Of a DNA stretch of 32,000 nucleotides, positions 2,942-28,990 are shown piece by piece. The notes under the pieces were generated by a model. That model had not been told where the DNA came from. It worked only from the letters and a program-made list of their open reading frames with translations, and did no database searches. Both the position numbers and the translations under genes were made by a program. Within the stretch, counting starts at the first letter, position 1. Each line of letters begins with the position of its first letter. This stretch comes from an uncultured Chloroflexia bacterium (lineage in GTDB: Bacteria > Chloroflexota > Anaerolineae > Anaerolineales > Anaerolineaceae): the NCBI GenBank assembly GCA_963704755.1, contig OY969938.1:2760001-2792000 (forward strand), read 5' to 3'.

Positions 2942-4371
2942 ATGGCAAGCCCTATTCCCCAAACCCTGGTCATGAAATTCGGCGGAACGTCGGTTGGTAC
3001 GCCGGAAGCAATGGCCCAAACAGCCCAAATTATCCGTAAACAACGCATGCTTTCGCCGCGGCTGGTGGTGGTCACATCAGCCCTTTCCGGCGTTACTGAC
3101 CTGCTGCTGAACAGCGCTATCGCCTCTGCCCGGGGTAACCTGGATGTGTATAACCGGGCCGTGGTCGATATCCGCGCCAAACATGAGGCTATCCTGACCA
3201 GTTTGATCGGCAATCCGGCCGATCAGGATGAAGCCCGCAGCGAGATCGACCCACTCTTGTTGAATTTCTCCAACCTGTGCCAGGCGATATTTGTCCTGGG
3301 TGAGGCGACGCCACGCGCCCTGGACGCGGTCGCCTCCCTGGGTGAGCGCATGTCGGTGCGGGCTTTGGCCGCGGCATTAAAGGGTGTCGATGTCTCCGCC
3401 CAAGTCGTCGAGGCCACTCGCCTGGTGGTCACCGACGATCATTACCAATCGGCCCACCCCGATTTCGAGGTCACCGCCCGGACCAGCCGGGAAGTGCTCA
3501 ACCCGCTCCTGGAGCAGGGCATCGTTCCGGTCGTGACCGGCTTCATTGGCGCCTCGGTCAGCGGGGTGATCACTACCCTGGGGCGCGGCGGCAGCGATTA
3601 CACGGCCGCTTTGTTGGGCGCAGCCCTGCCGGCGGACGAGGTCTGGATCTGGACCGATGTGGACGGCGTAATGACCGCCGACCCGCGCATCGTGCCCGAG
3701 GCCCATACCATCAAGGAACTGACCTATCGCGAGGTCTCCGAACTGGCTTACGCCGGGGCCAAGGTGCTCCATCCCAAGACGATCCGCCCGGTCATCGAGG
3801 CCGGCATTGGCCTGCGCGTGTTGAACACCTTCAACCCCGAAAATCCGGGTACGCGCCTGGTGCTGGACCTGCCGGTCTCCGGCCAGAACATCGTCAAATC
3901 GGTCACCACAGTCCGCGGGCAAAGCCTGATCACCCTGGAAGGCCACGGCATCATGGGTGTGGCCGGCGTGGCCGGGCGCACCTTTGCCACCATCGCCTCC
4001 ACCGGTACCAGCGTGGCATTGATCTCGCAGGCCTCGTCCGAGCAGTCGATCTGCTTTACCGTGCCGATGGATGCGGCCGATCAGGTAGTGAACGCGCTGA
4101 CCAACGAGTTTTACCGCGAGATGCAGCGCAAAGATATCGACCGTATTTGGGCCACCGACGAGGTGGTCATCGCCACCGTGGTGGGTGAAGGCCTGCAAAG
4201 GACCCCCGGGGTGGCCGGTAAAATTTTCAGCGCCCTGGGTGCGAAAAAGATCAACGTGATCGCCATTACCCAGGGTTCGTCCGAAGTATCGATCAGTTTT
4301 ATTCTTGCTCCCGGGGATGTGCAGAAAGCTATTCAAAGCCTGCACGACCTGGTGATTATCGAGGAGGTCGC

Positions 4372-4375
<4 letters not shown>
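2942..4375 (+). CDS. lysC: Aspartate kinase
   Basis: 477 aa. N-terminal KFGGTSVG kinase motif, conserved TLGRGGSDYTA motif, C-terminal ACT-like repeats. GAGGAA RBS 6 nt upstream. ATGA stop/start overlap with asd. Confidence 0.95.
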
Positions 4376-6081
<1,706 letters not shown>

Positions 6082-6089: not shown

Positions 6090-6454
6090 GTGACTCAGTG
6101 TGGCAGTGATTTGGTGATTCAGTGTCATGTTTCACGTGTCAGGTGTGGAAGCAGTGTTGCTGTGTTCCAGTGATCCGGTGTCACGTGTCAGGTGGGGCGT
6201 AGTGTTGCGGTGAATCAGTGATTCAGTTTCTCGGTGTTTCGTTGATGCCGGCCTATTGATTCTCGGCAATCGGTTAATAAGGTAATCAGTCAATAAGGCG
6301 ACAAGTCAAAAAGGGAAAAGTCAATAAGGCGATAAGTCAATAAGGGAAGAGGAATGTCGCGTTCCTCCCTCGTTGCCTTATTGCCTTGTTACCCCTTAAA
6401 ACTAATCTCTATTCTCTAATCCCTATTCTCTTTCCCCCTCTTTTCCCTCCGTGG
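6090..6454. repeat. GT-rich then CT-rich low-complexity tract with degenerate tandem and inverted repeats
   Basis: TCACGTGTCAGGTG(T/G)GG..AGTGTTGC.GTG occurs at 6132-6164 and 6181-6212. GTCAATAAGGCGA(C/T)AAGTCAA(A/T)AAGGGAA units (about 6286-6345) are partly complementary to CCTCGTTGCCTTATTGCCTTGTTACCCCTT (about 6368-6400). The CT-rich tail resembles 11690-11815. Confidence 0.6.
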
Positions 6455-7739
6455 TGCCTCAAAATAAAATGTTACTTTGGGATAATCGTTGCCTCAAATA
6501 GAAATGTTACCGGAGAATTCTTAACAATTGATTGACCTTTTTATTGATACTGGCCTGTAAGGACACAGGGTTCAGATGAACATATTGGGCAGTAAGACTG
6601 GCCTTGACTTTCAGGGGAAGAAGTCCTGGGCTAAGACCCGGCGATAGGGGGTCTTGGCCAGATCATACTTACGGATCGTCTTGCCGTCAACGGTTTCTTT
6701 AGCAATCAGTTTGAGAACTGGCTGGAAAAAATTGATGTAAAGACGCAAATCGGAGTAAATGGATTTGAGCAAGGCAAGTTCTTGTGGGGTTTCGAAGCGG
6801 TCATAGCCAATGGTATGTCGAACAACCGACCAATTCTTCTGTTCCACATGAGCCTGATCATTCTTGTGGTAAGGCCGCGAACGCGTAAAGGTAATGAGTT
6901 CGCTCTGGCAGTATCGCAAAAGTGTATCGTTGATGAATTCACTGCCATTGTCTGAATCCAATCCCAAAAGAGGAAAAGGCAGGTTATGGCGCAATTCCTC
7001 AATGGCTTGAGAGACAGCTGTCTGGGTTTTGTTGGCCAGGCCCAGGCACTCGGTCCAGCCGGTGGCTAAATCGGTTGCAGTGAGGGTATTGAGGTAGGTA
7101 CCCTCGGTGGTTGTACCACAATGGGCCACCAGGTCGATTTCCAGAAAGCCTGGCTTCTCGTCCTCCCAAGGGGTAAAGGTGCGGATGGGAATGGCTTGTT
7201 TGAGCAAACTGCCCGGTTTGGTAGTCCCAAGCCCACGTGGGGTGGGGGCGAGGCGTGCCTTTTTCAAACAGCGATCTATGGTGGCCCGGCTCAAGCTCAA
7301 CAAAAGCGCTTTGGTTTCCTCGCTCAACTCTATTTCCTGCCAGCGCTCTAAAACATCCACCATTTCAGGAATAAAAGGCTGTAGTCGTTTTGAGCAGATG
7401 CACCCACTAACTTCCCAAATCTTTTCCAGAGCCACGACGACTTCCCCGTTGTATTTCTTCCGTCGCCCGGCTTTCTTCAACCCCTTTGGCTTGGAACCAT
7501 GCTTCAACAGCCGAATAGCGTATTTACGATGATATCCGCTTGTGGCGATAAATTCATCCAAAATCTGTTTCTTCTCGGCTTTCCTGGCTTTCAAATAGCG
7601 CGGACGAATGCTTTCTAGCATCTCCCGCCGACTGCGTTAACTCATCATGAGCTCCCTCTGCGGTGCTTTATTCCGCGTTAGGGTAACATTTATTTTGAGC
7701 CAACGTTATTTCGCAAAGTAAGATTAATTGTGAGGCAAT
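6455..7739 (-). mobile_element. Insertion sequence (about 1.29 kb) with doubled terminal inverted repeats and an rve/DDE transposase
   Basis: Left end: TGCCTCAAAATAAAATGTTAC (6455-6475) and TTGCCTCAAATAGAAATGTTACC (6489-6511). Right end, reverse-complemented: TGGCTCAAAATAAATGTTACCC (7682-7703) and TTGCCTCACAATTAATCTTAC (7719-7739). These ends bracket the transposase ORF. Confidence 0.75.
6611..7621 (-). CDS. DDE (retroviral-integrase/rve-type) transposase; the C-terminus continues in another frame to 6507
   Basis: 336 aa. N-terminal HTH region (ILDEFIATSGYHRKYAIRLL). DDE candidates are EIDLVAH, LDSDNGSEF and HVEQKNW. After the stop, the -1 frame reads LKVKASLTAQYVHLNPVSLQASINKKVNQLLRILR and ends inside the inner terminal repeat (6507-6509). 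The shift is at the G4/C4 run 6614-6617. Family is not certain (IS481/ISNCY-like). Confidence 0.85.
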   Translation of the reverse strand: MLESIRPRYLKARKAEKKQILDEFIATSGYHRKYAIRLLKHGSKPKGLKKAGRRKKYNGEVVVALEKIWEVSGCICSKRLQPFIPEMVDVLERWQEIELSEETKALLLSLSRATIDRCLKKARLAPTPRGLGTTKPGSLLKQAIPIRTFTPWEDEKPGFLEIDLVAHCGTTTEGTYLNTLTATDLATGWTECLGLANKTQTAVSQAIEELRHNLPFPLLGLDSDNGSEFINDTLLRYCQSELITFTRSRPYHKNDQAHVEQKNWSVVRHTIGYDRFETPQELALLKSIYSDLRLYINFFQPVLKLIAKETVDGKTIRKYDLAKTPYRRVLAQDFFP

Positions 7740-7747
7740 TCGCCCTC

Positions 7748-7777
7748 TTGACTCCTCCCCCTACATTAAGGTACACT
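7748..7777 (+). promoter_or_regulatory. Putative sigma-70 promoter of the aromatic operon leader
   Basis: TTGACT (7748-7753), 18-nt spacer, TACACT (7772-7777). The leader-peptide ATG lies 9 nt after the -10. The -35 lies 8 bp outside the IS right end. Confidence 0.5.
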
Positions 7778-7786
7778 GCTTCCATC

Positions 7787-7867
7787 ATGCAAAACAGCTT
7801 CTCGTTTTACGCCAGCTTTTATTTTTATTACGGCCATCTTTCCAAGACAGCCGGCGGCGGCGCTTAA
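7787..7867 (+). CDS. Phe/Tyr-rich leader peptide (26 aa) of the aromatic amino-acid operon
   Basis: ATG 7787 to TAA 7865-7867 translates as MQNSFSFYASFYFYYGHLSKTAGGGA. There are 4 Phe and 4 Tyr codons within codons 5-15. It is followed 30 nt later by an intrinsic terminator and then aroH. It is too short to appear in the ORF track. Confidence 0.7.
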   Translation: MQNSFSFYASFYFYYGHLSKTAGGGA

Positions 7868-7894
7868 ACGGGGAACGAAATCCACTCTTGACCC

Positions 7895-7930
7895 AAAACG
7901 CGATGCCAAACGGCATCGCGTTTTTAGTTT
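7895..7930 (+). terminator. Intrinsic terminator (attenuator) in the aro operon leader
   Basis: AAAACGCGATGCC-aaac-GGCATCGCGTTTTT, then AGTTTT. The 9-bp GC-rich stem (7899-7907 with 7912-7920) is extended by A/T pairs. The T-run ends about 20 nt before the aroH RBS (GGGAGG) and ATG 7952. Confidence 0.8.
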
Positions 7931-7951
7931 TGTCCGGGAGGTGAACAATCT

Positions 7952-8329
7952 ATGTCCGTTCGAGGCGTCCGTGGAGCAGTAGTTGCCGATACCGACCAGC
8001 CAGGTGCAATCCTGGCCGCTGCCCGTGATCTGCTGGAAGCTATTCTGCACGCCAATCCAACGCTGGCCCCGCTTGACCTGGCCAGCGTTTTGTTTACAGT
8101 TACCGAGGACCTCACTTCCGCCTATCCAGCCCAGGCCGCCCGCGAATTGGGCTGGACCGGTGTGCCGCTGATGTGCGCACGTGAGATTCCTGTCCCCGGC
8201 AGCCCGGCCCGCTGCATCCGCGTGTTATTGCACTGGAACACCGAGCTGCCCCAATCCGCTATTTGCCATGTTTACCTGGGTGAGGCCGCCAGCCTGCGCC
8301 CGGATTTATCCGTCAGGAGGTCATCATGA
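7952..8329 (+). CDS. aroH: Chorismate mutase, AroH class
   Basis: 125 aa. Collinear with B. subtilis AroH (VRGVRGA..., [24 protein letters not shown]). Its TGA overlaps the ATG of the next gene. Confidence 0.92.
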
Positions 8330-9420
8330 TGATTATTATGCGCAGCGACGCCACACCCGAGCAGGTGAAGGACGTCGTTGCAAAAGTCGAAGCCAACGGG
8401 CTCAAAGTCCATATCTCGCAGGGGAGCGAGCGGGTGATTATCGGCGCTATCGGTGACGGGCGACCGGTGGTCAAAGACCAGTTCACTTTATTGACCGGCG
8501 TGGACCGGGTGGTGCCGATCTCGCGGCCCTACAAGCTGGCCTCACTCGAGTTCCAGCCGGCCAAGACCAGCTTCCAGGTTGGCCCGGCCACCTTCGGCGG
8601 CGATCAGATCGTGCTGGTCGCCGGGCCGTGCTCGGTGGAGAGCCGCAGCCAGTTGCTCGAGACCGCCCAGGCCGTCATGGAGGCCGGCGCGCACGTGCTG
8701 CGCGGCGGGGCCTACAAACCGCGCACTTCCCCCTACAGCTTTCAGGGATTGGGCGAGGAAGGCCTGGAACTGCTGGCCGAAGCCCGCGAAGTGACCGGCA
8801 TGCCGGTGGTGACCGAGGTCCTGGCGCCCGAACAGGTCTGCATGGTGGCCGAATACGCCGACATGCTCCAAATTGGTGCCCGCAATATGCAGAACTTCGC
8901 CCTGCTGCACGCCGCCGGCGAGTCGCAGCACCCGGTGCTGCTCAAACGCGGCATGAGCGCCACGGTCGAAGAGCTGCTGATGGCGGCCGAGTATATCCTC
9001 TCGCACGGCAACCGCCGGGTAGCATTGTGCGAGCGCGGCATCCGCACCTTCGAGACCGCCACCCGCAACACCACCGATATCAACGCCGTGCCGGTTTTGC
9101 AATCGCTCACCCACCTGCCGGTGATGGTCGATCCCAGCCACAGCACCGGGGCCTGGCAGTACGTCGCGCCGGTCGCACGGGCGGGTATCGCTGCCGGAGC
9201 CGATGGGCTGATCATTGAAGTCCATCCCCACCCGGACGAGGCCCTTTCGGATGGCGGGCAGAGCTTGAAGCCGGAGCGTTACGCCGAGCTGGTCGCCCAG
9301 GTGCGCGCCATCGCCGACGCGCTAGGACGGCGGGTGGCCCCGCCCTTGCGGTCCCCGTTACCTGAACCGGCTCCTGGAGAAATGGATCCCAACAATGGTT
9401 GGCAGCCAGACCTTGCCTGA
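8326..9420 (+). CDS. aroF: 3-deoxy-7-phosphoheptulonate (DAHP) synthase, type I-beta, with an N-terminal ferredoxin-like/ACT-like regulatory domain
   Basis: 364 aa. AGGAGG RBS 5 nt upstream. Core motifs are [26 protein letters not shown] and DPSH. An N-terminal extension of about 75 aa resembles that of Thermotoga-type DAHPS. Confidence 0.93.
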
Positions 9421-10282
9421 GCATCTGGCCGACTGTACTACCGCCATCGTTGGGCTGGGCCTGATGGGCGGTTCGCTGGCCCTGGCACTGCGCGGGCGCT
9501 GCCGGCGTCTGTTGGGCATCGACCCGGACACGGCCACCCTGACCCTGGCTGAAAAGATGTACCTGGCCGACGAACTGGAACCGCAATCAGGAGACCTGCT
9601 CGAGCAGGCTGACCTGATCGTGCTGGCCGCGCCGGTAGAAGTGATTTTGGCCCTGCTGGGTGAACTGCCCCGCCTGCACGGCGGACCGGCCGTGGTGCTG
9701 GACCTGGGCTCGACCAAGTTCCAGATCTGCGCCGCCATGGACGCCCTGCCCGAACGATTCGAGGCGGTCGGCGGCCATCCCATGGGCGGCAAGGAACGCT
9801 CTTCGCTGCGCGAGGCCCAGGCCGAGATTTACCATGAGGCGCCGTTCGCGCTGGTGCGCACCCGCCGCAGCACGCCGCGCGCCTGCCGTCTGGCCGAAGA
9901 GCTGGCCAGCGCGGCCGACGCCTGCCCGTTGTGGCTGGATGCCGAGACCCACGATCGCTGGACGGCGGGCACCAGCCACCTGCCGTACCTGGCCGCCAAC
10001 GCGCTGGCAGCCATTACCCCGGTGGAAGCGGCTCCGCTGGTCGGACCGGGTTTTCGCAGCACTACCCGTGTGGCCACCACCCCCGTCGAGGTCATGCTGG
10101 ATATCCTCCGGACCAACCGTGAAAATGTGCTGACCGGCCTGGCCGAGCTGCGCGGCCGGCTGGACCTGCTGGAAAGCCTGCTGGCGGACGAGCGTTACGG
10201 CGAGCTGGCCGGCGCGCTGACCGAAGGGGCCGATCACTGCCGGGCGCTGCTGCAAACCGGGCGGATTGTGAGGGAGCCATGA
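9395..10282 (+). CDS. tyrA: Prephenate dehydrogenase
   Basis: 295 aa with a GLGLMGGS Rossmann motif and GGHPMGG. Its start overlaps the DAHPS tail by 26 nt, so the start is moderately uncertain. Confidence 0.88.
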
Positions 10283-11613
10283 GCATCCTGCGCGTCGTTC
10301 CGGGCTACCCGCTGCGCGGCACGGCCAGCCTGCCGGGAGATAAGTCGATCTCCCACCGGGCGGCCCTGTTCGCCGCCATCGCCAATGGCGAAAGCCGTAT
10401 TGGTCACTTCCTGCAATCGGGCGTGACGGCGGCCATGCTGCGCGGGCTGACCGGCCTGGGCGTGGATTGGTCGCTGGAAGGGGATTGCCTGCGTGTGCAC
10501 GGCCGTGGCCTGGGCGCCTGGCAGACCCCGTCACAGCCGCTGGACTGCGGCAATTCGGCCACCACCCTGCGCCTGCTGACCGGCGCGGTCGCTGCGGCCG
10601 GCATCTCGGCCGTTTTGGACGGCTCGGATGGACTGCGCCGCCGGCCGATGGGGCGCATTTGCGAGCCGCTGCGCAGCATGGGCGTGCCCATCCAGGCGGC
10701 GGCGGGCGATTGTGCGCCTCTGAGCCTCTCGGCTCGCCCGGCCGGTACGGAACTGCGCGCAGCGATTCACGTTTTGCCGGTGGCCAGCGCCCAGGTCAAG
10801 TCCTGCCTGATGCTGGCCGGTCTGGCTGCGCCGGGTACCACTACCATCGTCGAGCCGGGCCGCTCGCGCGACCACAGCGAGCGTATGTTGAGCGCCATGG
10901 GCGCCGAGGTCCACAGCGGGCCGGCCGATAATGCCCCTGGCTGGCAAATAACCCTCCGCCCACCGGCTGCCGGCCTGGCTCCGCTGGACCTGGACGTGCC
11001 GGGCGACTTCTCGGCGGCGGCTTTTTTGATCGTGGCGGCTCTGGTCACGCCCGGCTCGGACCTGCTGATCGAGGGCGTAGACCTCAACCCCACCCGCACC
11101 GGCCTGCTGGAGGTGCTGATCGAAATGGGCGGAAAGATCGACGTGCTCGACCGGCGCGAACAGGCCGGTGAGCCGGTCGCGAACCTGCGCGTGCGGGCCA
11201 GCCGGCTCCAGGCCGGCCAGGTCTGCGGCCAGCGGGTGGTCGATATGATCGACGAATTCCCCATTTTCGGCGTGGCCGCGGCTTACGCTCACGGGGCCAG
11301 CCGGGTCTGGGAAGCCGGCGAGCTGCGTTACAAAGAATTGGACCGCATCAGCAGCCTGTGCGCCGAATTGGCCGGGCTGGGGGCGCCGGTCGAGGAAGCC
11401 CCGGACGGGTTCACCGTCCACGGGCAGGGCAGGCTGCCGGGCGGCGCTTGCGGCAGCGCCCACGGCGATCACCGCCTGGCCATGTCACTGGCCGTGGCCG
11501 GCCTGGCTGCCCAGGCCCCGGTCGAAGTGCAAGGCGCCGAAATGATTGGCGAATCCTTCCCGGGGTTTGTGGAAGGACTGGCCGCTCTCGGAGCGAAGGT
11601 GGAGGTGATATGA
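10279..11613 (+). CDS. aroA: 3-phosphoshikimate 1-carboxyvinyltransferase (EPSP synthase)
   Basis: 444 aa with the LPGDKSISHRAALFAA motif. ATGA overlap with the tyrA stop. GAGGGAG RBS. Confidence 0.95.
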   Translation: MSILRVVPGYPLRGTASLPGDKSISHRAALFAAIANGESRIGHFLQSGVTAAMLRGLTGLGVDWSLEGDCLRVHGRGLGAWQTPSQPLDCGNSATTLRLLTGAVAAAGISAVLDGSDGLRRRPMGRICEPLRSMGVPIQAAAGDCAPLSLSARPAGTELRAAIHVLPVASAQVKSCLMLAGLAAPGTTTIVEPGRSRDHSERMLSAMGAEVHSGPADNAPGWQITLRPPAAGLAPLDLDVPGDFSAAAFLIVAALVTPGSDLLIEGVDLNPTRTGLLEVLIEMGGKIDVLDRREQAGEPVANLRVRASRLQAGQVCGQRVVDMIDEFPIFGVAAAYAHGASRVWEAGELRYKELDRISSLCAELAGLGAPVEEAPDGFTVHGQGRLPGGACGSAHGDHRLAMSLAVAGLAAQAPVEVQGAEMIGESFPGFVEGLAALGAKVEVI

Positions 11614-11619
11614 AGGCCG

Positions 11620-11815
11620 TTTGCCCTCATCCCCCGGCCCCTTCCCCCAGAACGGGGGAAGGAGAGAAAGACGCATTTCTTTTGTCTTTCCCTCGTTGCC
11701 TGATCGACTTCTCACTATTCTCTACTCTCTACTCTCTACTTTCCATCCTCTTTTCCTCGTCGCCTTCTTGCCTTGTTGCCTTTCCCCCTTCTTCCAACTT
11801 TTTACCTTCTTCTTG
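11620..11815. repeat. Repeat insertion inside the aro operon (inverted hairpin+CCCTCATCCCC unit, then a CT-rich low-complexity tract)
   Basis: GCCCTCATCCCCCGGCCCCTTCCCCCAGAACGGGGGAAGG (about 11626-11668) is the inverted form of the hairpin+GGTTGGGGTGAGGG family. The tract CCCTCGTTGCCT...TCTACTCTCTACTCTCTAC...GCCTTGTTGCC resembles 6368-6450. Confidence 0.65.
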
Positions 11816-11822
11816 AGGCATT

Positions 11823-12698
11823 ATGAAACGTTATTTGAATTTAGGATTAATTGGTTATCCGCTCGAACATAGCCTGTCGCCACGGCTGCACCAGGCAGCT
11901 ATGCGCGCAACCGGCCTGGCCGGTGAATATCACCTTTACCCGGTGCCGCCGGTGCCCCAGGGCACGGCCGGCCTGGTGGGATTGGTCGCGCGCCTGCGCA
12001 GCGGTGAGATCGACGGGCTGAACGTGACCATCCCGCACAAGCAGTCCATCCTGCCGCTGCTGGACCGGCTCAGCCCCACCGCCGAGCAGATCGGCGCGGT
12101 CAACACCCTGTACCTCCAGGACGGGCGCGTGACCGGCGATAACACCGACGCGGCCGGTTTCTGGACGGACCTGAAAAATCAGGCCGGCGCCGCTGAGTTG
12201 AACGGCGGCCGCGCCCATCGGGCCCTGGTGCTGGGCGCCGGCGGAGCCGCTCGCGCGGTGGTGTATGCCCTCGCGCAAGCCGGCTGGCAGGTGACCCTGG
12301 CCGCTCGCCGGACCGGCCAGGCCGAAGAACTGCTGGACAGCCTGGGCATCCATGGCCAGGTCGTATCCCTCGACCCGGCCGGGTTGGTCACCGTCGACCA
12401 GATCGATGCGCTGGTCAACGCCACCCCGCTGGGCATGACCCCGCGAGTCGCGGCCTGCCCCTGGCCTGAGCAGTTGGAACTCCCGGCCGGCGCGATTGTA
12501 TACGACCTGGTCTATAACCCCCAGGAAACCCGCCTGCTGGCACGGGCTCGTTCGGCCGGGCTGCGCGCTTTCAGCGGGGTGGGGATGCTGGTCGAACAGG
12601 CCGCCCTGGCGTTCCAATGCTGGACCGGCCTGGATGCGCCTCGCCCGGCGCTCTGGCAGGGCCTGCAAACTGCACTGTCTCAAAAGGCGGCCGTGTAA
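11823..12698 (+). CDS. aroE: Shikimate dehydrogenase
   Basis: 291 aa with NVTIPHK and GAGGAARA motifs. Its TAA shares one base with the aroC ATG (TAATG). Confidence 0.93.
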   Translation: MKRYLNLGLIGYPLEHSLSPRLHQAAMRATGLAGEYHLYPVPPVPQGTAGLVGLVARLRSGEIDGLNVTIPHKQSILPLLDRLSPTAEQIGAVNTLYLQDGRVTGDNTDAAGFWTDLKNQAGAAELNGGRAHRALVLGAGGAARAVVYALAQAGWQVTLAARRTGQAEELLDSLGIHGQVVSLDPAGLVTVDQIDALVNATPLGMTPRVAACPWPEQLELPAGAIVYDLVYNPQETRLLARARSAGLRAFSGVGMLVEQAALAFQCWTGLDAPRPALWQGLQTALSQKAAV

Positions 12699-13882
12699 TG
12701 ACCCTGCGTTTCCTCACCGCGGGTGAATCACACGGCCCGGGGCTGACCGCCATCCTGGAGGGCCTGCCGGCCGGGCTGCGCCTGGATGAAGCCGCCATCA
12801 ATGCCGACCTAGCCCGCCGCCAGAAAGGCCTGGGAGCCGGTCCGCGCATGAAGCTGGAGAGCGACCAGGCCCAGGCGCTTTCGGGGGTGATGGAAGGGCT
12901 GACCACCGGCGCGCCCCTGGCGCTGTTCATCCGGAACCGCGACCACGCCCGCTGGCAGGGCCGGGAGATCGAGGAATTCACCATCCCGCGCCCGGGCCAC
13001 GCCGACCTGAGCGGGGCGCTCAAGTACGGCTATGCCGACCTGCGCCCGGCCCTGGAACGGGCCTCGGCCCGTGAGACGGCCGCGCGGGTGGCTGTGGGTG
13101 CGGTCTGCCGCCAGTTTCTGGCCGGGTTTGGCATCCAGGTCGGCGGGTACGTCGTCTCGATCGGCGAAATCGACGCTGATTTGGCGGGCATCCCCCTGGC
13201 CGAGCGCCACGCCCGTTCGCTGGAGAACGAGGTGCACTGCCCCGATCCGGCCGCGGCCGAGGCCATGCAAGCCCGTATCCGCCAGGTGATGCAGGAGCGC
13301 GATACCCTGGGCGGGATAATCGAGGTGCTGGCGCTGGGCCTGCCGGCCGGGCTGGGCTCCTTCGTCCAGTGGGACCGCCGCCTGGATGCCCAACTGTCCG
13401 CCGCTTTGATGAGCGTGCAGGCTATCAAAGGCGTCGAGATCGGCCCGGCCTTCGCGAACGCCCGTTTACCCGGCACCCAGGTGCAGGATGCCATCCGTCT
13501 TCAAGGGCAGACGCTGGTGCGCGAAAGCGACCGCTCCGGCGGGCTGGAGGGTGGGGTGACCACCGGCCAGCCACTGCTGCTGCGGGCGGCCATGAAGCCG
13601 ATCGCCACCACCCTGACTCCCCAGCGCTCGGTGGACCTGGCCAGTGGGGAAGAAGTGGCCACCCGCTACGAGCGCTCCGATTTTTGCCCGGTCCCGCGCG
13701 CGGTCGTGATTCTGGAAGCCATGATGGCCTTCGTGTTGGCCAATGCCCTGCTGGAAAAGCTGGGCGGCGATTCGCTGGCCGAGATGCAGCCGCGTTTTGC
13801 CGCGCTGCGCCAGGCGCGCCTGGCCGATCTGCCCATGGACGGTCACGGCCACCCGTTTTGGCCGGTCGGGGGTGAGGCATGA
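12698..13882 (+). CDS. aroC: Chorismate synthase
   Basis: ORF 12617..13882 trimmed to ATG 12698, giving the canonical N-terminus MTLRFLTAGESHGPGL. RSDFCPVPRA motif near the C-terminus. Confidence 0.93.
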   Translation: MTLRFLTAGESHGPGLTAILEGLPAGLRLDEAAINADLARRQKGLGAGPRMKLESDQAQALSGVMEGLTTGAPLALFIRNRDHARWQGREIEEFTIPRPGHADLSGALKYGYADLRPALERASARETAARVAVGAVCRQFLAGFGIQVGGYVVSIGEIDADLAGIPLAERHARSLENEVHCPDPAAAEAMQARIRQVMQERDTLGGIIEVLALGLPAGLGSFVQWDRRLDAQLSAALMSVQAIKGVEIGPAFANARLPGTQVQDAIRLQGQTLVRESDRSGGLEGGVTTGQPLLLRAAMKPIATTLTPQRSVDLASGEEVATRYERSDFCPVPRAVVILEAMMAFVLANALLEKLGGDSLAEMQPRFAALRQARLADLPMDGHGHPFWPVGGEA

Positions 13883-15456
13883 GCCCTTCGCGCTCCTTTT
13901 TGTTCCTCTACGGGCCCTCCGGGGCGGGCAAGAGCAGCCTGGGCGCCCGGCTGGCTGAGCGCCTGCACCTGCCGTTCTATGACCTGGACCACCTGATCGA
14001 GCAGTCTGCCGGCCGGAGCATCCCCGAGTTGTTCGCTGGCCAGGGTGAGGCGGCCTTCCGCGCCCTGGAGAGCCGCGAACTGCGGGATGTATTGGCCCGT
14101 CCGTCCGGGGTGGTCGCCCTGGGCGGCGGAGCGCTGCTCGACCCGGCCAACCGCGACCTGGCCGAAAGCGCCGGGCGGGTATTGCGCCTGGCGGCCCCGC
14201 TCGAGGTGCTGGCCGGGCGCCTGGACCGTCATCGCGAGGTTCGTCCGCTGCTGGCCGGCGCTGCCGGGACGGGCCGCCCAGCAGCCGGCCTGGCAGCGCT
14301 GCTGGAACAGCGCGCCGGGCATTATGCCTCGTTTACCAATGGTTTGGATACCTCCTCCGGCACAATCGAAGACCTGCTGCCGGCCGCCCTGCAGGCGCTG
14401 GGCGCATTTTTCGTCGAGGGCATGGGCGCTCCCTATCCGGTGCGGGTCATCCCCGGCGGGTTGGATCACCTGGGCGGCTTGCTGGCTGAGCTGGGGTTAA
14501 AAGGACCACTCGGCCTGGTCTGTGACGACCACACTGCCCCATTGTACGCTGAGCGGGTGCTTGCATCGCTGCGTATAGCCGATTACACGGCCAGCCTGAT
14601 CACCATCCCCAGCGGCGAAGAGCACAAAACCATCCAGACCGTGGGCGCGATCTGGGCCGGGCTGGTCGCGGCCGGGCTGGAGCGCGGCAGCACCCTGGTA
14701 TCCCTGGGCGGCGGCGTGACCAACGACCTGGCCGGCTTTGCCGCGGCTACCTTCCTGCGCGGCATGGGCTGGGTCACTCTGCCGACCTCGCTGCTGGCCA
14801 TGGTGGATGCCAGCCTGGGCGGCAAGACCGGCGCAGACCTGCCCCAGGGCAAGAATCTGATCGGCGCCTTCCACTCGCCGGCGCTGGTGCTGGCCGATCC
14901 GCAAGCGCTGGCCAGCCTGCCCGTGGCCGAATTGCGCAGCGGCATGGCCGAGGTGGTCAAGCACGGCGTGATCGGCGACCCGGGCCTGTTCGAACTGTGC
15001 CGGGCCGGCCTGCCCCAGGATGAGGCCGGTTGGGATGAGCTGGTCCGGCGGGCCATGGCGGTCAAGGTCGCCGTCATCCAGGCCGACCCGTACGAGCGCG
15101 GCCTGCGGGCAGCGCTCAACCTGGGCCACACCATCGGCCACGGGGTGGAAAAAGCCAGCGGTTATAACCTGCGCCACGGCGAGGCGGTCGGCATTGGCAT
15201 GCTGGCCGAGGCGCGCCTGTCCGAGCGGTTGGGCTTGGCCACGCCCGGCCTGGCCGGGCAGATCGCGGTCGTGCTGGACGGGTTGGGCCTGCCCACCCGC
15301 ATCCCGGCCGAGCTGGACCGCGCGGCGATTTTACAGGCCATGCGCCTGGACAAGAAACGCAGCGATGGGAAAATCCGCTTCAGCCTGCCGGTGCGGGTCG
15401 GCGAGGTTAAGGTCGGGGTGGCCATCGACCTGGACGAATCGATTCTGGAGGGGTAA
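13879..15456 (+). CDS. aroK/aroB: Bifunctional shikimate kinase / 3-dehydroquinate synthase fusion
   Basis: 525 aa. The N-terminal 160 aa or so carry Walker A (GPSGAGKS) and shikimate-kinase-like sequence. The remainder is DHQ synthase (GGGVTNDLAGFAAATFLRG, LGHTIGHGVE). ATGA overlap with aroC. Confidence 0.92.
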   Translation: MSPSRSFLFLYGPSGAGKSSLGARLAERLHLPFYDLDHLIEQSAGRSIPELFAGQGEAAFRALESRELRDVLARPSGVVALGGGALLDPANRDLAESAGRVLRLAAPLEVLAGRLDRHREVRPLLAGAAGTGRPAAGLAALLEQRAGHYASFTNGLDTSSGTIEDLLPAALQALGAFFVEGMGAPYPVRVIPGGLDHLGGLLAELGLKGPLGLVCDDHTAPLYAERVLASLRIADYTASLITIPSGEEHKTIQTVGAIWAGLVAAGLERGSTLVSLGGGVTNDLAGFAAATFLRGMGWVTLPTSLLAMVDASLGGKTGADLPQGKNLIGAFHSPALVLADPQALASLPVAELRSGMAEVVKHGVIGDPGLFELCRAGLPQDEAGWDELVRRAMAVKVAVIQADPYERGLRAALNLGHTIGHGVEKASGYNLRHGEAVGIGMLAEARLSERLGLATPGLAGQIAVVLDGLGLPTRIPAELDRAAILQAMRLDKKRSDGKIRFSLPVRVGEVKVGVAIDLDESILEG

Positions 15457-15897
15457 ATGAGCAATGCGGTACTGGTCCTGCACGGGCCGAACATGAATCT
15501 GCTGGGCGAGCGTGAGCCGGGGGTTTACGGCCAGGTCAACCTGGCCGAGATCGATGCATGCCTGTGTGCCCTGGGCGAAACCCTGGGCCTGGAGGTGCGC
15601 TGCGCGCAGTCCAACCACGAGGGCGTGCTGATCGACGCCCTGCACGACGCGCGCACCTGGGCCGCCGGGGTGGTCTTTAACCCGGGCGGCTACACCCATA
15701 CCTCGGTCGCCTTGCGCGACGCGGTCGCGGCTATCCACATCCCGGTGGTGGAAGTACATCTTTCCAATACCCAGGCCCGCGACGACTTTCGCCATACCTC
15801 GCTGATCGCCCCGGTCTGCCGCGGCAGCATCGCCGGCTTTGGCTGGTATTCCTATGCCCTGGGGTTGTATGCGATCAAGAACGGATTGGGAGAGTAA
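15457..15897 (+). CDS. aroQ: Type II 3-dehydroquinate dehydratase
   Basis: 146 aa with LHGPNMNLLGEREP, NPGGYTHTS and EVHLSN motifs. It starts immediately after the aroKB stop. Confidence 0.95.
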   Translation: MSNAVLVLHGPNMNLLGEREPGVYGQVNLAEIDACLCALGETLGLEVRCAQSNHEGVLIDALHDARTWAAGVVFNPGGYTHTSVALRDAVAAIHIPVVEVHLSNTQARDDFRHTSLIAPVCRGSIAGFGWYSYALGLYAIKNGLGE

Positions 15898-15899: not shown

Positions 15900-16815
15900 G
15901 GTTGGGGAAGTGTTTCAGTTTTAAAGTGATTTGGTGGATCTGTAAAAGAGTGTCGGGTGTCATGTATTGGGTGGCAGTCGTGTAGGTTGGGTTGCGGGCT
16001 CTTTGAGCATATATTCCGCAATCCAAGTGTTTGTCTGTACAGGCCTTGCCCGTAACCCAACGAGGCTTATACGGCTCCAGGCTTTGCCCTCACCCCAACC
16101 CATCTCCCAGTCGTGTAGGTTGGGTTGCGGGCTCTTTGAGTATATTTTTCGTAATCCAAGTGCTTGTCTGTACAGGCCTTGCCCGTAACCCAACATTGTG
16201 TTTGGCGATTGCCATTGTTGGGTTGTGGCAAGGTTTAGATGATCAGAGATCCTGTTTATACCCAAACTCGATGAATGAGCCCGCAACCCAACCTACAAGA
16301 CTTACGAAACCTTGCCCGTAACCCACCATCCGAATATAACGGTGGGTTACTGCGGTGCATCTATTAGCCAGCGTTGAAGAACGGCCTCGGTCTGGAGACC
16401 GGGCCGATCCACTTTGGGCAATCGTTCTTTTAAATAGTAGTTTCTCTTCTTCTCTTTCTTTTCTCTGTGAACTCTGTGTGCTCTGCGGTGAAGCGTTTTT
16501 TCTCCGTGTTCTCCGTGCCTCCGTGGTTTTTTACTCTTTCATAAAACGCTTTTCAACAGGCTTATACGACTCCAGGCTTCGCCCTCACCCCAACCCCTCT
16601 CCCAGAAACGGGAGAGGGGCTAAGAAGGTCATACCCGTAACCCAACAATGGTAATTGCCAAACGCAACGTTGGGTTGCGGGCATGGCCTGAGATGTTACC
16701 CTATCCGGCAATTCGCCGGCGGTTTGGATGAACCCGCAACCCAACCTACAGGTTTTTTCACTGTGGTGAAGCGTTTTTCTCCGTGTTCTCCGTGCCTCCG
16801 TGGTTTTTTACTCTT
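15900..16815. repeat. Dense cluster of nested REP/MITE-like repeats
   Basis: An 87-nt unit is tandemly duplicated at 15975-16061 and 16108-16194 (about 94% identity, 133-bp period). There are at least 10 copies of the core GTTGGGTT(G/A)CGGGC or its complement in both orientations (e.g. 15986, 16048, 16119, 16181, 16279, 16635, 16672, 16736). GGTGAAGCGTTTTTCTCCGTGTTCTCCGTGCCTCCGTGGTTTTTTACTCTTTCATAA occurs twice (about 16487-16550 and 16766-16826). A copy of the 165-207 element sits at 16310-16355. Confidence 0.8.
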
Positions 16816-17925
16816 TCATAAGACATTTTTCAGCAGCGGTATTCTGCGGAAGACAAAATGCGTGGCCGCAAAGCATAACGGTACGCAAACGATGCACATG
16901 ATGATCCACTTGACGACCGGCGTGAAGGTGACCGGGCTGAACCACAGCGTGACCGCGGTCAGGATAACCGGGTGGAACATGTATACGGCAAACGAATTAT
17001 CCGACAGCGTTTTGACCAGCCGGCTCTGCCGGTTCCATTTTTCGCGAAAGACGGCGATCAGCCCGATGGCCATGGCCACCGCTACAAACGATTCCCAGAC
17101 CGCAAACAGCGCACTTTCCCAGGTGAAGCCGCCTAACAGGGCGTCCGTTCCACCCGGAACAAGGCTGGCAGCGATCACCAGGACCAGCCAACTGAACAGG
17201 CCCAGCCCAATCGCGCTGATCAGCCACCATTTCCCGGCCTTATAGCTGATCCGGGCGAACAGGTGATTGCGCGAGGCGAAAATACCCATGGCAAAAAGGA
17301 TAATGTATGAGGCGAAATAACAGAGCTGCATGTTCAGGATATTCGTCCCGATCGGTTGGACGATGCGAATCAGGAAGGCACACACGGCGATAGCCAGGAT
17401 CAGGAGCAAGGCTTTGCGCACGGATAGTTTGAATTGCGGTTGGTCCGCGGCGGGCCGGTGGATCACCAGGCGACCCGCGCCATAGACCAGCGAAAAGATG
17501 AACAGCGCCACCGTGAACCACAGCACCCCGGTGCCCGAAAGGAAGTCGTACAGGTTGTAGCTGCCCGGCCTTTGGCCAAGTTCGACCAGCCCGATGAACG
17601 GGGTAATGACGACCATATAGATCAGCGCAGGGACGATCAGGCGCTTGAACCGTTCTCCGGTAAACTTCCCGAAACCCTTGCGGTCGTAGCTCCCGGCGAC
17701 GAAATAGCCGGAGATCATGAACAGGAAGCCCATGAAATAGGCTTGCTGAAAGGAAAGGTAAAAGGCGAACCAGGCGGTAGTTACCTTGTCGAGCGGCCTG
17801 GTTTCGATGTAGTAAAAACCGCCCAGGCCGCTGTACGTCACGGCCAGGTGGTGCATGACCACAAATATGATCACCAACAGCCGGAGATTATCGATATAAA
17901 AAAGCCGTTCCTTTACTTTTTCCAT
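16816..17925 (-). CDS. Acyltransferase family 3 (OpgC/OafA-like) integral membrane protein
   Basis: Polytopic membrane protein. The N-terminus MEKVKERLFYIDNLRLLVIIFVVMHH is typical of acyltransferase_3 proteins. The longest ORF extends to 17985, but I see no RBS there. GAAGGAAGG precedes ATG 17925. Confidence 0.8.
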   Translation of the reverse strand: MEKVKERLFYIDNLRLLVIIFVVMHHLAVTYSGLGGFYYIETRPLDKVTTAWFAFYLSFQQAYFMGFLFMISGYFVAGSYDRKGFGKFTGERFKRLIVPALIYMVVITPFIGLVELGQRPGSYNLYDFLSGTGVLWFTVALFIFSLVYGAGRLVIHRPAADQPQFKLSVRKALLLILAIAVCAFLIRIVQPIGTNILNMQLCYFASYIILFAMGIFASRNHLFARISYKAGKWWLISAIGLGLFSWLVLVIAASLVPGGTDALLGGFTWESALFAVWESFVAVAMAIGLIAVFREKWNRQSRLVKTLSDNSFAVYMFHPVILTAVTLWFSPVTFTPVVKWIIMCIVCVPLCFAATHFVFRRIPLLKNVL

Positions 17926-23496: not shown

Positions 23497-23517
23497 GGAT
23501 GGCCTCTCGTTCCCGGA

Positions 23518-24927: not shown

Positions 24928-24936
24928 ACGCGCCTC

Positions 24937-25452: not shown

Positions 25453-25471
25453 TGATCACTCCTGATAGATT

Positions 25472-25771
25472 CTAAGAGCCGGGAGCGAGCCGGTTTACTA
25501 AGGTTTTTGCGACGTCGCGTATTTGAACGGTATAGTTACCGTTTTGGACTGCCTGACGCAGGGTATCCAGCTTTTTGTTATCAACCTCATCGGCGCTATC
25601 CATGCTCGCGCGCGCCTTGGCCAGCAGGCGGCCTTTGTCCGAAACGTCGGCGTGGTCATATTGTGACTGAACCAAGCTGGTCTCGTTCATCGCCGTCTTG
25701 TGGTCAACCCGCTGAGTGGGGTCCGTTCCTTGAGAGGAAAGGGATGAAACGGAATTATTTTCTACTTTCAT
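25472..25771 (-). CDS. flgM: Anti-sigma-28 factor FlgM
   Basis: 99 aa. The C-terminal KLDTLRQAVQNGNYTVQIRDVAKTLVNRL matches the FlgM sigma-28-binding helix pattern. AGGAGG RBS. A sigma-28 promoter lies upstream. Confidence 0.85.
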   Translation of the reverse strand: MKVENNSVSSLSSQGTDPTQRVDHKTAMNETSLVQSQYDHADVSDKGRLLAKARASMDSADEVDNKKLDTLRQAVQNGNYTVQIRDVAKTLVNRLAPGS

Positions 25772-25820
25772 GGATACAACCTCCTGAGGTCATTGCGAAC
25801 GATAAATCACTGTAATGACA

Positions 25821-28988: not shown

Positions 28989-28990
28989 TG

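Follow-up and report, generated by a model that had tools for sequence, protein, structure and literature searches.

A putative Phe/Tyr leader-peptide attenuator upstream of the aro operon in Anaerolineae

The aro operon located in the 32,000-nucleotide stretch of DNA analyzed here (hereafter the window) is very probably controlled by a ribosome-mediated transcription attenuator, whose leader peptide would tune the expression of the chorismate mutase, common-pathway and tyrA genes to the supply of charged tRNA-Phe and tRNA-Tyr. Features that characterize this class of regulators are present in the window, namely a cluster of codons for the end products, an intrinsic terminator, a mutually exclusive antiterminator and a 1:2 protector helix. 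Computational analysis of the window and of related loci established these parts, together with their conservation, mutual exclusivity and geometry.

Results

The sensor ORF of the leader comprises 26 codons on the forward strand (7787-7867), starts with the ATG at 7787, ends with the TAA at 7865-7867 and encodes MQNSFSFYASFYFYYGHLSKTAGGGA. Phe occupies codons 5, 7, 11 and 13 and Tyr codons 8, 12, 14 and 15, which agrees with an earlier note on this DNA that had counted four Phe and four Tyr within codons 5-15 of this ORF. In translated letters the regulatory run reads FSFYASFYFYY (7799-7831, forward strand), so that eight of its 11 codons are aromatic, four for Phe and four for Tyr. This run is more than chance: a scan of the Phe/Tyr density in about 47,900 stop-free 11-codon segments, covering all six frames of the 32-kb window, found at least six Phe plus Tyr only in six overlapping segments inside the leader ORF, and the maximum elsewhere was five. 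The GC content of the leader patch is 46-52% compared to 63-73% in the aro operon, which bears out the locally AT-rich patch in GC-rich surroundings described before. Codon usage differs as well, with UUU 3 / UUC 1 in the leader versus UUU 17 / UUC 34 in the operon, and the U-ending codons (UUU/UAU) have a greater share in the regulatory run than in the operon genes.

The ORF is followed by an intrinsic terminator (7895-7931, forward strand), which consists of a 13-bp stem (7895-7907 / 7912-7924), the loop AAAC and the U-tract UUUUUAGUUUU at 7921-7931. Its core stem GCGATGCC / GGCATCGC (7900-7907 / 7912-7919) is lengthened to 13 bp by an A-U extension, and TTTTTAGTTTT follows; the canonical terminator with an AAAC loop recognized earlier could thus be confirmed, with a longer stem. 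It is the top forward-strand terminator match within the first 16.5 kb of the window. The ribosome binding site of aroH (GGGAGG, 7936-7941) and its start codon (7952-7954) are located 3' of the terminator and outside of it (7936-7954, forward strand), also in line with the earlier description.

Both MFE folding and RNAalifold predict a further hairpin, H1 (7831-7853, forward strand), as a putative anti-antiterminator and possibly a pause hairpin. In H1, CGGC at 7831-7834 pairs with GCCG at 7850-7853 and UCUU at 7837-7840 with AAGA at 7844-7847, so that its 5' strand begins within the last Tyr codon, and its 3' strand doubles as the first part of the antiterminator strand. In the alignment of relatives 88% of the H1 cells are paired, with changes on both sides in 7/8 pairs, and the corresponding values for the terminator are 94.6% and 10/13 pairs. 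Taken together, 92% of the cells of both helices are paired, 17/21 pairs have changed on both sides and 0/500 shuffles were as good, which points to strong covariation of H1 and terminator. RNAalifold predicts the two helices independently, and they were replicated in the metagenome set with 99.9% of the cells paired. H1, although conserved and covarying, is absent from the earlier note. The leader RNA of the window as a whole folds with -50.6 kcal/mol (z = -5.0 versus shuffles). Region 2 can also pair with the 5' part of the ORF, and this pairing shows moderate enrichment only (median z -1.85).

The predicted antiterminator connects the leader with the terminator. According to the MFE of the partial transcript its leader-side strand GCCGGCGGCGGCGCUUA (7850-7866, forward strand) consists of the final five sense codons plus the stop codon, and its terminator-side strand (7897-7914, forward strand) takes in the terminator's 5' arm and loop together with the first 3 nt of its 3' arm. 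The earlier note had suggested folding the RNA with the ribosome-occupied part constrained, and with a stalled ribosome covering the RNA to 7842 and the RNA polymerase at 7914 the antiterminator 7850-7863 / 7900-7914 is indeed the MFE structure. In this fold of 7843-7914, positions 7850-53 pair with 7911-14, 7856-59 with 7904-07 and 7861-63 with 7900-02, and the 4-bp segment at 7911-7914 also uses the last loop base of the terminator. The pairing of 7856-7863 with 7900-7907 proposed previously (7/8 pairs including one G-U) is therefore real, but its extent has to be revised, since it is only the central third of this longer helix.

In the family, folding of the same partial-transcript state gives the antiterminator as MFE structure with at least 8 of 14 pairs in 45/55 members. 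In the genome alignment 76.9% of the antiterminator cells are paired, a figure that counts two deliberately unpaired columns, versus 36-50% in slid controls, and in the metagenome set the value is 96.6% versus 37-52%. The median duplex energy is -20.1 compared to -10.8 kcal/mol for shuffles, and z is below -2 in 53/55 members. Divergent subfamilies with an altered terminator (GCGUGGAGC...) have a leader 3' part that is changed to match (z -2.1 to -4.5 in 9/12 loci). The complementarity is not above shuffles in the Caldilineaceae-type leaders L048 and L070, nor in L061. The one informative column pair of the antiterminator gave p = 0.001 in the genome alignment without correction for phylogeny, and the variable column did not covary significantly in the independent metagenome set (p = 0.37); therefore, we do not claim strong covariation of the antiterminator. 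The outer antiterminator pairs show no compensation when the terminator stem covaries in the metagenome set. The alignments thus support the antiterminator by in-register complementarity, energy z-scores and wholesale co-change, and single-column covariation is weak.

In the window the antiterminator contains two internal loops and reaches -13.4 kcal/mol versus -21.4 kcal/mol for the terminator, and the model therefore needs kinetic pre-emption. The antiterminator of the E. coli trp operon is likewise weaker than its terminator. As predicted by folding, H1, antiterminator and terminator are three mutually exclusive structures, strictly so because the antiterminator shares the 3' strand with H1 and the 5' arm, the loop and the first bases of the 3' arm with the terminator. 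The leader strand at 7850-7866 is fully under a ribosome sitting at the stop codon.

The regulated operon (7952-15897, forward strand) encodes eight products according to NCBIfam: aroH (AroH-type chorismate mutase, 7952-8329), DAHP synthase (8326-9420), tyrA (prephenate dehydrogenase, 9395-10282), aroA (10279-11613), aroE (11823-12698), aroC (about 12704-13882), an aroK-aroB fusion (13879-15456) and aroQ (15457-15897). Most of them exceed the curated family cut-off, and tyrA is below it. These products make chorismate, prephenate and the Tyr branch, and the NCBIfam annotation of the operon contains neither trp genes nor pheA. The proposal that the sensed amino acids fit the operon content, with chorismate mutase, prephenate dehydrogenase and the common pathway, therefore holds. 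Judged by the names of its best AroH relatives, the source bacterium is Anaerolineae-like. Upstream of the aspartokinase-asd genes of the same window there is no comparable leader peptide, and only two long palindromes are found.

Conservation in relatives had been set beforehand as a point on which the whole idea could fail, and the outcome clearly favours it. A covariance model of 111 positions (R1) was built from 54 relatives, with the window sequence excluded. It matches the window at 7817-7929 on the forward strand over model positions 1-111 of 111 (88 bits, E 2.7e-18), and the other match in the window is solely the reverse strand of the terminator. Furthermore, R1 matches 59/80 genome loci, untrained loci among them, and 80/80 metagenome loci, about 140 in all, the metagenome loci having been gathered by a pattern that specifies the leader motif only. 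The same loci share the F/Y-rich leader ORF, a terminator that follows its stop codon by 44-71 nt, and the promoter geometry. The element heads the aro operon at all loci with sufficient downstream sequence; the ORF that follows it is AroH in 71/80 metagenome loci and incomplete or mis-called in the remainder. At one locus with the gene order DAHPS-aroH (L050) it is located upstream of DAHPS. With a length of about 150 nt and 7-8 aromatic codons, the element is spread across the whole class or phylum.

A pattern scan found the proposed sigma-70-type promoter TTGACT-N18-TACACT at 7748-7777 on the forward strand, with the -35 hexamer at 7748-7753 and the -10 hexamer at 7772-7777. The end of the -10 hexamer and the leader ATG are separated by 9 nt. 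An IS element lies about 22 nt upstream of the -35 hexamer, with its transposase on the opposite strand, and it could alter the promoter strength in this particular genome. In 46/53 relatives a TTGAC-N17-TAGAAT promoter ends 6-13 nt before the leader ATG (mode 10 nt, 32/46). SD-like 4-mers upstream of the leader ATG were found in 0/53 loci, compared to an SD-like motif upstream of aroH in 50/53 of the same loci. The conserved distance of about 10 nt between -10 hexamer and ATG together with the 0/53 SD-like motifs supports the view, conjectured in the earlier note, that the leader ORF is leaderless or near-leaderless, with the transcription start predicted from the promoter.

It is conceivable, although we consider it unlikely, that the attenuator works as described on a transcript that is not leaderless, with a start further upstream or with TTGAC-N17-TAGAAT not being the promoter, and with initiation in an SD-less 5' UTR by another route. 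The start is placed by prediction only, and a distance of 9-10 nt from the -10 hexamer makes a start 2-3 nt upstream of the AUG likelier than one on the AUG itself. In a few members (L026, L027 and L044) the best promoter precedes the leader ATG by 25-30 nt, a GGAGG motif stands before this ATG in divergent subfamilies such as L080, and leaderless genes are predicted to be rare in Chloroflexi, with about 4.7% in 4/12 genomes (PMC3160421). On the other hand, a near-consensus promoter at a fixed short distance and the contrast in SD-like motifs between leader and aroH speak against such a transcript, and the conserved spacing is hard to explain with a start elsewhere. We therefore retain the leaderless or near-leaderless start as the preferred reading.

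Two further alternatives concern the role of the ORF. In the 55 aligned family members the leader contains a median of 7 Phe plus Tyr, the leader ATG and the aromatic codons share one frame in 55/55 and N-terminal indels are nearly all multiples of 3. At each of the last four columns of the aromatic run, 48-55 of the 55 members have an aromatic codon, with Phe and Tyr swapping freely. In the 3' part of the leader the nucleotides are conserved and two reading frames are used, ending in '..AAVGGA*' or '..RLPLAALK*' with stops at most 4 nt apart; one locus (L035) has the leader MCSSRVAYWFYFYSGISPRTAGGSA. Because relatives read the same nucleotides in two frames, the alignment indicates that the C-terminal '..AAVGGA' is conserved as RNA and not as peptide.

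This conservation of the 3' half at the RNA level is what a translation-independent switch would also show, in which a protein, tRNA or metabolite binds the leader RNA in a T-box-like, TRAP/PyrR-like or riboswitch-like manner and the ORF is incidental, and the U(U/A)U-rich run might conceivably serve as an unstructured spacer or bind a protein. Such a switch is nevertheless very improbable. ATG, frame and stop are conserved, the stops being kept in both frames used, and the triplet indels and the retained aromatic identity despite Phe/Tyr interchange are signs of a translated sequence, whose encoded amino acids fit the pathway. The structured part is small, with one 8-bp hairpin and the terminator, there are zero Rfam matches even at E up to 10 and zero T-box matches, and the 5' strand of H1 lies exactly inside the footprint of a ribosome on the last aromatic codons.

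If the ORF is translated, its product might be a functional aromatic micropeptide, for example with a membrane or signalling role, and it could even act alongside attenuation, as S. meliloti peTrpL is reported to do. Conservation of the aromatic core (..FYFYYG..) is good throughout the family, and leader peptides with a dual function are documented (PMC7298713). However, the N-terminus varies in length and sequence, the C-terminal third is in two different frames among the members, Phe and Tyr do not keep a fixed order and neither the window peptide nor a family-typical peptide matched any family in NCBIfam or Pfam at E up to 10. Such traits are typical of a codon sensor and not of a folded or targeted peptide, and we regard a functional micropeptide as hardly credible. 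The last alternative, a chance ORF beside an ordinary terminator that shields the aro operon from transcription coming from upstream, for instance IS read-out, could draw on the IS element immediately upstream, but it is effectively refuted by the conservation data, as ORF, hairpin and terminator occur at about 140 other loci with unrelated upstream genes, and in addition the Phe/Tyr density is unique in the window, a dedicated promoter is located upstream of the terminator and the IS transposase is encoded on the opposite strand.

For the codon-sensing attenuator, translation of the ORF, transcription start, stalling and the regulatory response can be pictured after the classical trp/his/phe paradigm. 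Transcription would begin at the leader AUG or a few nucleotides upstream, and the first ribosome would therefore load on a leaderless or near-leaderless mRNA. With plentiful Phe-tRNA and Tyr-tRNA it should reach the stop codon at 7865-7867 and cover 7850-7866; with the antiterminator strand covered, the terminator (7895-7924 plus U-tract) would form and transcription would stop before aroH. If no ribosome is present, H1 (7831-7853) is expected to sequester the antiterminator strand so that the terminator forms as well, and in this ribosome-free state H1 may be assisted by the 5' part of the ORF, which can pair with 7858-7877. When either charged tRNA is scarce, the ribosome would stall with a late aromatic codon (about 7820-7831) in the A site, and its footprint would cover the 5' strand of H1. 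The freed strand 7850-7863 could then pair with 7900-7914 on emergence from the RNA polymerase, which would pre-empt the terminator and allow transcription of the operon.

Discussion

Taken together, the element may found a cis-regulatory RNA family not described so far, with Chloroflexota (Anaerolineae and neighbouring classes) as a new phylum for leader-peptide attenuation, an obligately leaderless sensor and one element over the whole shikimate pathway plus chorismate mutase and tyrA. We put this joint reading forward tentatively, as a possibility in which we have somewhat less than even confidence. In its obligately leaderless form, the very first ribosome at the 5'-terminal AUG would be the Phe/Tyr sensor. 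The MFE structure of the large 'MLKST..' subfamily contains a 14-bp helix of the 5'-terminal AUG region with the stop-codon region, and it is tempting to speculate that this helix could bar later ribosomes, so that only the co-transcriptional pioneer ribosome would be read out.

Anaerolineae are abundant in sludge, sediment and subsurface and are hardly tractable, and to our knowledge almost no gene regulation has been described for this class. The element provides a testable regulatory mechanism for aromatic amino-acid biosynthesis in these organisms and would extend ribosome-mediated attenuation to another deep bacterial phylum in a leaderless form. A leaderless attenuator is also relevant to the way in which transcription and translation become coupled on leaderless mRNAs. 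The covariance model R1 could become the seed of an Rfam family and help to annotate MAGs more accurately, in which the mini-ORF is unannotated or mis-called, and the Phe/Tyr leader could be used as a compact sensor part. No new principle is involved, as attenuation has been textbook knowledge since the trp operon.

The mechanism is known and the family is new, being absent from Rfam 15 and with no Chloroflexota description found. A cmscan of 7000-8600 against Rfam at E up to 10 returned one spurious lncRNA match only, on the other strand, and the whole window gave nothing at the gathering thresholds. Covariance-model matches in the window were zero for the T-box (RF00230) and for the leaders Phe_leader RF01859, Trp_leader RF00513, His_leader RF00514, Leu_leader RF00512, Thr_leader RF00506 and leu/phe leader RF01743, and a T-box or a known leader family is therefore ruled out. 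A literature search for Chloroflexi, Chloroflexota or Anaerolinea in combination with leader peptide or attenuation revealed nothing relevant; it did not cover Lopatovskaya et al. 2010 (Mol Biol 44:128), reportedly a broad survey of predicted attenuators, which is the main residual risk to the novelty claim. The earlier note had known of no description of an aro-operon-wide F/Y attenuator of this form. This still applies to Chloroflexota, but the case is less unprecedented than held there, because the aroR-aroF attenuator and leader ORFs without a ribosome binding site are known.

In Firmicutes, RNA-level control of aromatic amino-acid genes is usually exerted by T-box leaders (RF00230), which are also reported in Chloroflexi. 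These leaders share with the window element a terminator/antiterminator decision in the 5' leader of amino-acid genes and, under the model for the window, the reading of tRNA charging. In contrast, the window element is without T-box sequence, specifier loop and stem I, and its approximately 150 nt contain a conserved frame for which translation is predicted.

The enterobacterial attenuators trpL-trpE, hisL, pheL-pheA and pheM-pheST resemble the window element in having a short ORF in which codons for the regulated amino acid are clustered, and in the exclusive helices 1:2 (protector/pause), 2:3 (antiterminator) and 3:4 (terminator). In both cases a ribosome at the stop codon masks region 2, according to the model proposed here, and the antiterminator is weaker than the terminator, so that control is kinetic. 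However, there is no sequence or covariance-model similarity between them and the window element, and the phylum is a different one (Chloroflexota, class Anaerolineae). The enterobacterial leaders sense a single amino acid and control a terminal-branch gene, whereas the leader of the window has a mixed Phe plus Tyr run and its target is the common-pathway operon with chorismate mutase and tyrA. Furthermore, the sensor ORF of the window is apparently leaderless and without SD, and the antiterminator of the window extends into the terminator loop and the top of the 3' arm as well.

Leader ORFs without ribosome binding site or 5' leader are reported from Corynebacterium and Mycobacterium. As described, these leaderless sensor sORFs are located at or near the 5' end of the transcript without SD, like the window ORF, whose 5' end is predicted, and stalling at clustered codons remodels the downstream RNA and controls the operon, as it would in the model for the window. 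The output in the window differs from these accounts, being an intrinsic terminator upstream of and separate from the aroH ribosome binding site, and amino acid and phylum differ as well.

As far as the published descriptions allow, the nearest functional precedent for a Phe/Tyr attenuator of the aromatic pathway is aroR-aroF of C. glutamicum, in which a Phe-Tyr-Phe leader is located upstream of DAHP synthase (Neshat et al. 2014, as summarised in PMC11802643; also PMC4046766, PMC3890552) and which reportedly responds to Phe and not to Tyr (PMC11802643). Compared by description, both systems place a leader with aromatic residues upstream of an aromatic-pathway operon, which starts with DAHP synthase in the case of aroR-aroF. 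The latter belongs to the Actinobacteria, has three aromatic codons versus 7-8 in the element presented here and precedes an operon of other content.

A Conserved Phe/Tyr-Rich Leader ORF Upstream of the aro Operon

The aro operon of the window starts with aroH (plus strand, ATG 7952), which encodes an AroH-type chorismate mutase of 125 aa and is preceded by the RBS GGGAGG (7936-7941). According to NCBIfam, the genes for DAHP synthase and prephenate dehydrogenase, aroA, aroE, aroC, an aroK-aroB fusion and aroQ follow on the same strand up to position 15897, and the operon covers the whole common pathway together with chorismate mutase and the Tyr branch. This agrees with the content named in the earlier note, chorismate mutase, prephenate dehydrogenase and the common pathway without Trp genes; neither trp genes nor pheA were found among the operon genes.

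The Phe/Tyr-rich leader ORF claimed for 7787-7867 is present at this position (plus strand, ATG 7787 to TAA 7865-7867). It comprises 26 codons (MQNSFSFYASFYFYYGHLSKTAGGGA), with Phe at codons 5, 7, 11 and 13 and Tyr at codons 8, 12, 14 and 15. Among the approximately 47,900 stop-free 11-codon windows in the six frames of the 32-kb window, at least six Phe plus Tyr per 11 codons are reached only inside this ORF and therefore the density is not due to chance. The GC content of the leader region is 46-52% vs. 63-73% in the aro operon, and the leader RNA folds much more stably than its own shuffles (z = -5.0).

For comparison we used 80 genome loci encoding AroH relatives, the closest of which come from Anaerolineales and Anaerolineae MAGs. 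Conservation of the ORF in relatives that keep the operon, which had been proposed as a test, was seen in most of these loci, where a Phe/Tyr-rich mini-ORF lies 70-150 nt upstream of aroH (e.g., MLKSTRWFAFYFYYGFRSPVAGGGA and MQKFSRFYFYYYYGVPHLAAGGGA). A covariance model (R1), built on an alignment (A3) of 54 relatives and excluding the window sequence, matches the window element in full length at 7817-7929 (88 bits, E 2.7e-18), and its sole other match in the window is the reverse strand of the terminator. R1 also matches 59 of the 80 genome loci, untrained ones among them, and gave full-length matches including the terminator in all 80 loci of a metagenome set, which had been collected by scanning contigs with the leader motif alone. 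The next ORF is AroH in 71 of these 80 loci, the others being truncated or mis-called. In L050, an Anaerolineaceae MAG locus with the gene order DAHP synthase-aroH, the attenuator (L050:1813-1924, leader MNFNTSSRYFAYVYFYGNGNPNACGGA, 77.6 bits) is located upstream of the DAHP synthase gene, and thus it tracks the 5' end of the operon and not aroH itself. L041, a close relative, carries a reduced leader version (YYY..F).

In a 55-sequence leader alignment (A2) every member has its ATG in the same frame as the aromatic codons, and almost all differences in N-terminal length are multiples of three. Of the aromatic codon columns, the last four encode an aromatic residue in 48-55 of the 55 members, with free interchange of Phe and Tyr. 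Over its final 20 nt (consensus GCCGUUGGYGGCGCUUAA) the ORF is conserved at the nucleotide level. Due to a 1-nt indel in some members, the same nucleotides are read as '..RLPLAALK*' instead of '..AAVGGA*', with the stop codons of both frames only 4 nt apart. As the nucleotides are kept but read in two frames, the 3' end of the ORF shows the pattern typical of an RNA element superimposed on a reading frame that has only to remain open. In 24 of the 55 leaders (A2 columns 37-39; e.g., L007, L009 and L010) the aromatic run begins with one Trp codon (..R-W-F-A-F-Y-F-Y-Y..), although the aro operon has no trp genes; the window leader has no Trp codon. Where present, this codon could confer some added Trp sensitivity or be incidental.

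Terminator, Hairpin H1 and Antiterminator

The terminator hairpin with an AAAC loop reported upstream of aroH was confirmed as a perfect hairpin, GCGAUGCC-AAAC-GGCAUCGC, whose stem extends to 13 bp (plus strand, 7895-7907/7912-7924) once the flanking A-U pairs are counted and which is followed by UUUUUAGUUUU. A strong hairpin with a U-tract is found 44-71 nt past the leader stop in nearly all genome loci bearing the mini-ORF. Directly after the aromatic run lies a second hairpin on the same strand, H1 (7831-7834 with 7850-7853 and 7837-7840 with 7844-7847; family consensus ACGGY..CCG-loop-CGG..RCCGU). RNAalifold predicted both hairpins unguided. Together, 92% of their cells are paired in A2, with changes on both sides in 17 of 21 pairs, whereas none of 500 column shuffles was as good and slid controls reached 36-54%; in the metagenome set 99.9% of the cells are paired.

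In A2, positions G82-U97 of the leader (window 7850-7865) form a strand with complementarity to the 5' arm, the loop and the first 3'-arm bases of the terminator (7898-7914). The 8-bp antiterminator pairing of the earlier note is therefore real but incomplete, as it represents the central third of this longer helix. Even with two deliberately unpaired columns counted, 76.9% of the antiterminator cells are paired in A2 vs. 36-50% in slid controls, and 96.6% vs. 37-52% in the metagenome set. The median duplex energy is -20.1 kcal/mol vs. -10.8 kcal/mol with shuffled leader strands, with z < -2 in 53 of 55 members. In 45 of 55 members, at least 8 of the 14 pairs of the antiterminator were present in the MFE structure when folding was restricted to the RNA that is free with a ribosome stalled at the last aromatic codons and the polymerase just past the loop; for the window this structure consists of exactly 7850-53:7911-14, 7856-59:7904-07 and 7861-63:7900-02. 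In divergent subfamilies with a differing terminator (GCGUGGAGC...) the 3' part of the leader also differs and matches that arm (z -2.1 to -4.5 in 9 of 12 loci). One variable leader column shows U-A 20, C-G 16, U-G 5 and C-A 7 times in A2 (p = 0.001, uncorrected for phylogeny), but covariation at this column is not significant in the metagenome set (p = 0.37), and this single-column covariation is the weak point of the antiterminator case. No antiterminator could be demonstrated in the Caldilineaceae loci L048 and L070, which have a W/F/Y-rich leader variant (..WRGFSFGNFWFGYYFG..).

Folding of the window sequence indicates that the antiterminator alone (-13.4 kcal/mol) is weaker than the terminator (-21.4 kcal/mol), which wins once fully transcribed. 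The antiterminator of the E. coli trp operon is likewise weaker, and there the pre-formed 2:3 helix blocks the 3:4 helix kinetically.

Predicted Promoter and Probable Leaderless Start

In 46 of 53 loci, the leader ATG is preceded at a distance of 6-13 nt by a predicted near-consensus promoter (TTGAC-N17-TAGAAT); the mode is 10 nt (32 of 46), and the distance in the window is 9 nt. SD-like 4-mers were found in none of the 53 loci upstream of the leader ATG, compared to 50 of 53 upstream of aroH. Because of this conserved short distance and the lack of an SD-like motif, transcription likely starts 0-3 nt upstream of the leader AUG, and the ORF is probably leaderless, which is in line with the previous conjecture. 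Exceptions are a few members in which the promoter lies another 25 nt or so upstream, and certain divergent subfamilies whose longer leader ORF is SD-led. One such subfamily (L055, L062, L064, L074 and L080) has a longer, apparently SD-led ORF upstream of aroH with the motif E/D-Y-F-A-Y-Y-Y-A-Y-A, together with the differing terminator (GCGUGGAGC...) and a leader 3' part that matches its arm. According to a published prediction, few genes in Chloroflexi are leaderless (PMC3160421).

Only about 22 nt separate the -35 hexamer from an IS element on its upstream side (~6455-7725, inverted-repeat-like ends at ~6455-6511 and 7682-7725), which encodes an rve/IS481-like transposase (ORF 6611-7621, minus strand) and leaves core promoter and attenuator intact; the sequence just upstream of the hexamer (AATTCGCCCTC) retains its likeness to the relatives. 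In the transposase frame, an ATG at 7648 follows an RBS but runs into a TAA at its fourth codon (7639-7637), so that the transposase ORF may be N-terminally truncated or inactivated. A near-identical strain (L081, a 1.3-kb metagenome contig, Logan ERR11571143) has the same leader and terminator and, in the 236 nt upstream of aroH (L081:1-236 vs. window 7716-7951), differs only in its -35 hexamer, which is TTAACT rather than TTGACT. The contig breaks off at the equivalent of 7716, as expected since a repeated IS end breaks assemblies.

Proposed Mechanism

The 5' strand of H1 begins within the last Tyr codon. Assuming a downstream ribosome footprint of about 12-13 nt, a stalled ribosome would cover this strand, and so free the strand of the antiterminator, whenever one of the last three or four aromatic codons occupies its A site. 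Once at the stop codon, the ribosome would cover ~7850-7877 and hence all of the leader-side strand of the antiterminator. If no ribosome is present, this strand would be sequestered by H1 and also by base pairing between 7858-7877 and the 5' part of the ORF, for which family-wide enrichment is only moderate (median z -1.85). As the aroH RBS lies outside the terminator, the regulatory output would be transcriptional. In this model, H1, antiterminator and terminator would reproduce the classical attenuation logic point for point; we infer leader translation, ribosome stalling and the physiological response. The attenuator interpretation of the earlier note is supported and extended, and the element very probably acts as a leader-peptide attenuator.

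Repeats and Other Features of the Window

GC-rich hairpins (CCCCTCTCCC...GGGAGAGGGG; 11613-11823 and 16590-16620) resemble a dispersed REP-like repeat, and one of them lies within the operon in an unusual 210-nt pyrimidine-rich spacer separating aroA and aroE. In many relatives (e.g., L007, L009, L014 and L017) such a hairpin is inserted between the attenuator terminator and aroH, which explains the bimodal spacing between the two (70-90 vs. 117-151 nt). Downstream of aroQ (15900-16850) there is a cluster of direct repeats (15975-16061/16108-16194, 94%; 16497-16559/16774-16836; 16063-16110/16558-16605) in which the motif GCCCGTAACCCA recurs throughout; 16297-16348 has a copy at 152-203. Short tandem-like motifs adjoin the left end of the IS element (6100-6350), GTCAATAAGG four or five times (6280-6350) and GTGTCACGTGTCAGGTG twice (6130-6200), and are possible protein-binding iterons. 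Two near-perfect long palindromes with stems of ~20 bp (2661-2722 and 2738-2815), each preceded by ACCTGAAAAA, are intergenic and located upstream of the aspartokinase-asd genes (2942-5388), where neither a leader peptide nor an Rfam riboswitch was found. A flagellar gene cluster (minus strand, 22612-31975) encodes a flagellin-like protein, FlgK, FlgN, two FlgF/G-type rod proteins, a FliA-like sigma factor and an FlhF-like SRP GTPase, and is notable in an Anaerolineae-like genome because cultured Anaerolineae are mostly described as non-motile.

Comparison With Known Attenuators

No Rfam family, including T-box, matched the leader region even at E up to 10. Full-text literature on leader peptides or attenuation in Chloroflexi, Chloroflexota or Anaerolinea yielded nothing relevant, with the broad survey of Lopatovskaya et al. 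(2010) outside its coverage. By its proposed mechanism, the element is a classical leader-peptide attenuator; judged by sequence and covariance model, it belongs to none of the described families. The closest functional precedent is the aroR leader of C. glutamicum, which contains Phe-Tyr-Phe, precedes the aroF (DAHP synthase) operon and is reported to respond to limitation of Phe but not of Tyr (PMC11802643; PMC4046766). A sensor ORF without RBS or 5' leader has precedents in the C. glutamicum ilvB leader (Morbach 2000, cited in PMC10272879) and in the leaderless poly-Cys sORFs of mycobacteria, which in contrast act on translation and not on termination (bioRxiv 10.1101/834739).

The element defines a new family, a variant on a familiar type of regulator, which is widespread in Anaerolineae and neighbouring Chloroflexota. 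It combines a Phe plus Tyr run as sensor, a sensor ORF that is apparently leaderless and presumed control over an entire aro operon. As comparative genomics we consider the finding solid and publishable, and the family well suited to an Rfam entry; it follows the principle of known attenuators and adds no new one.
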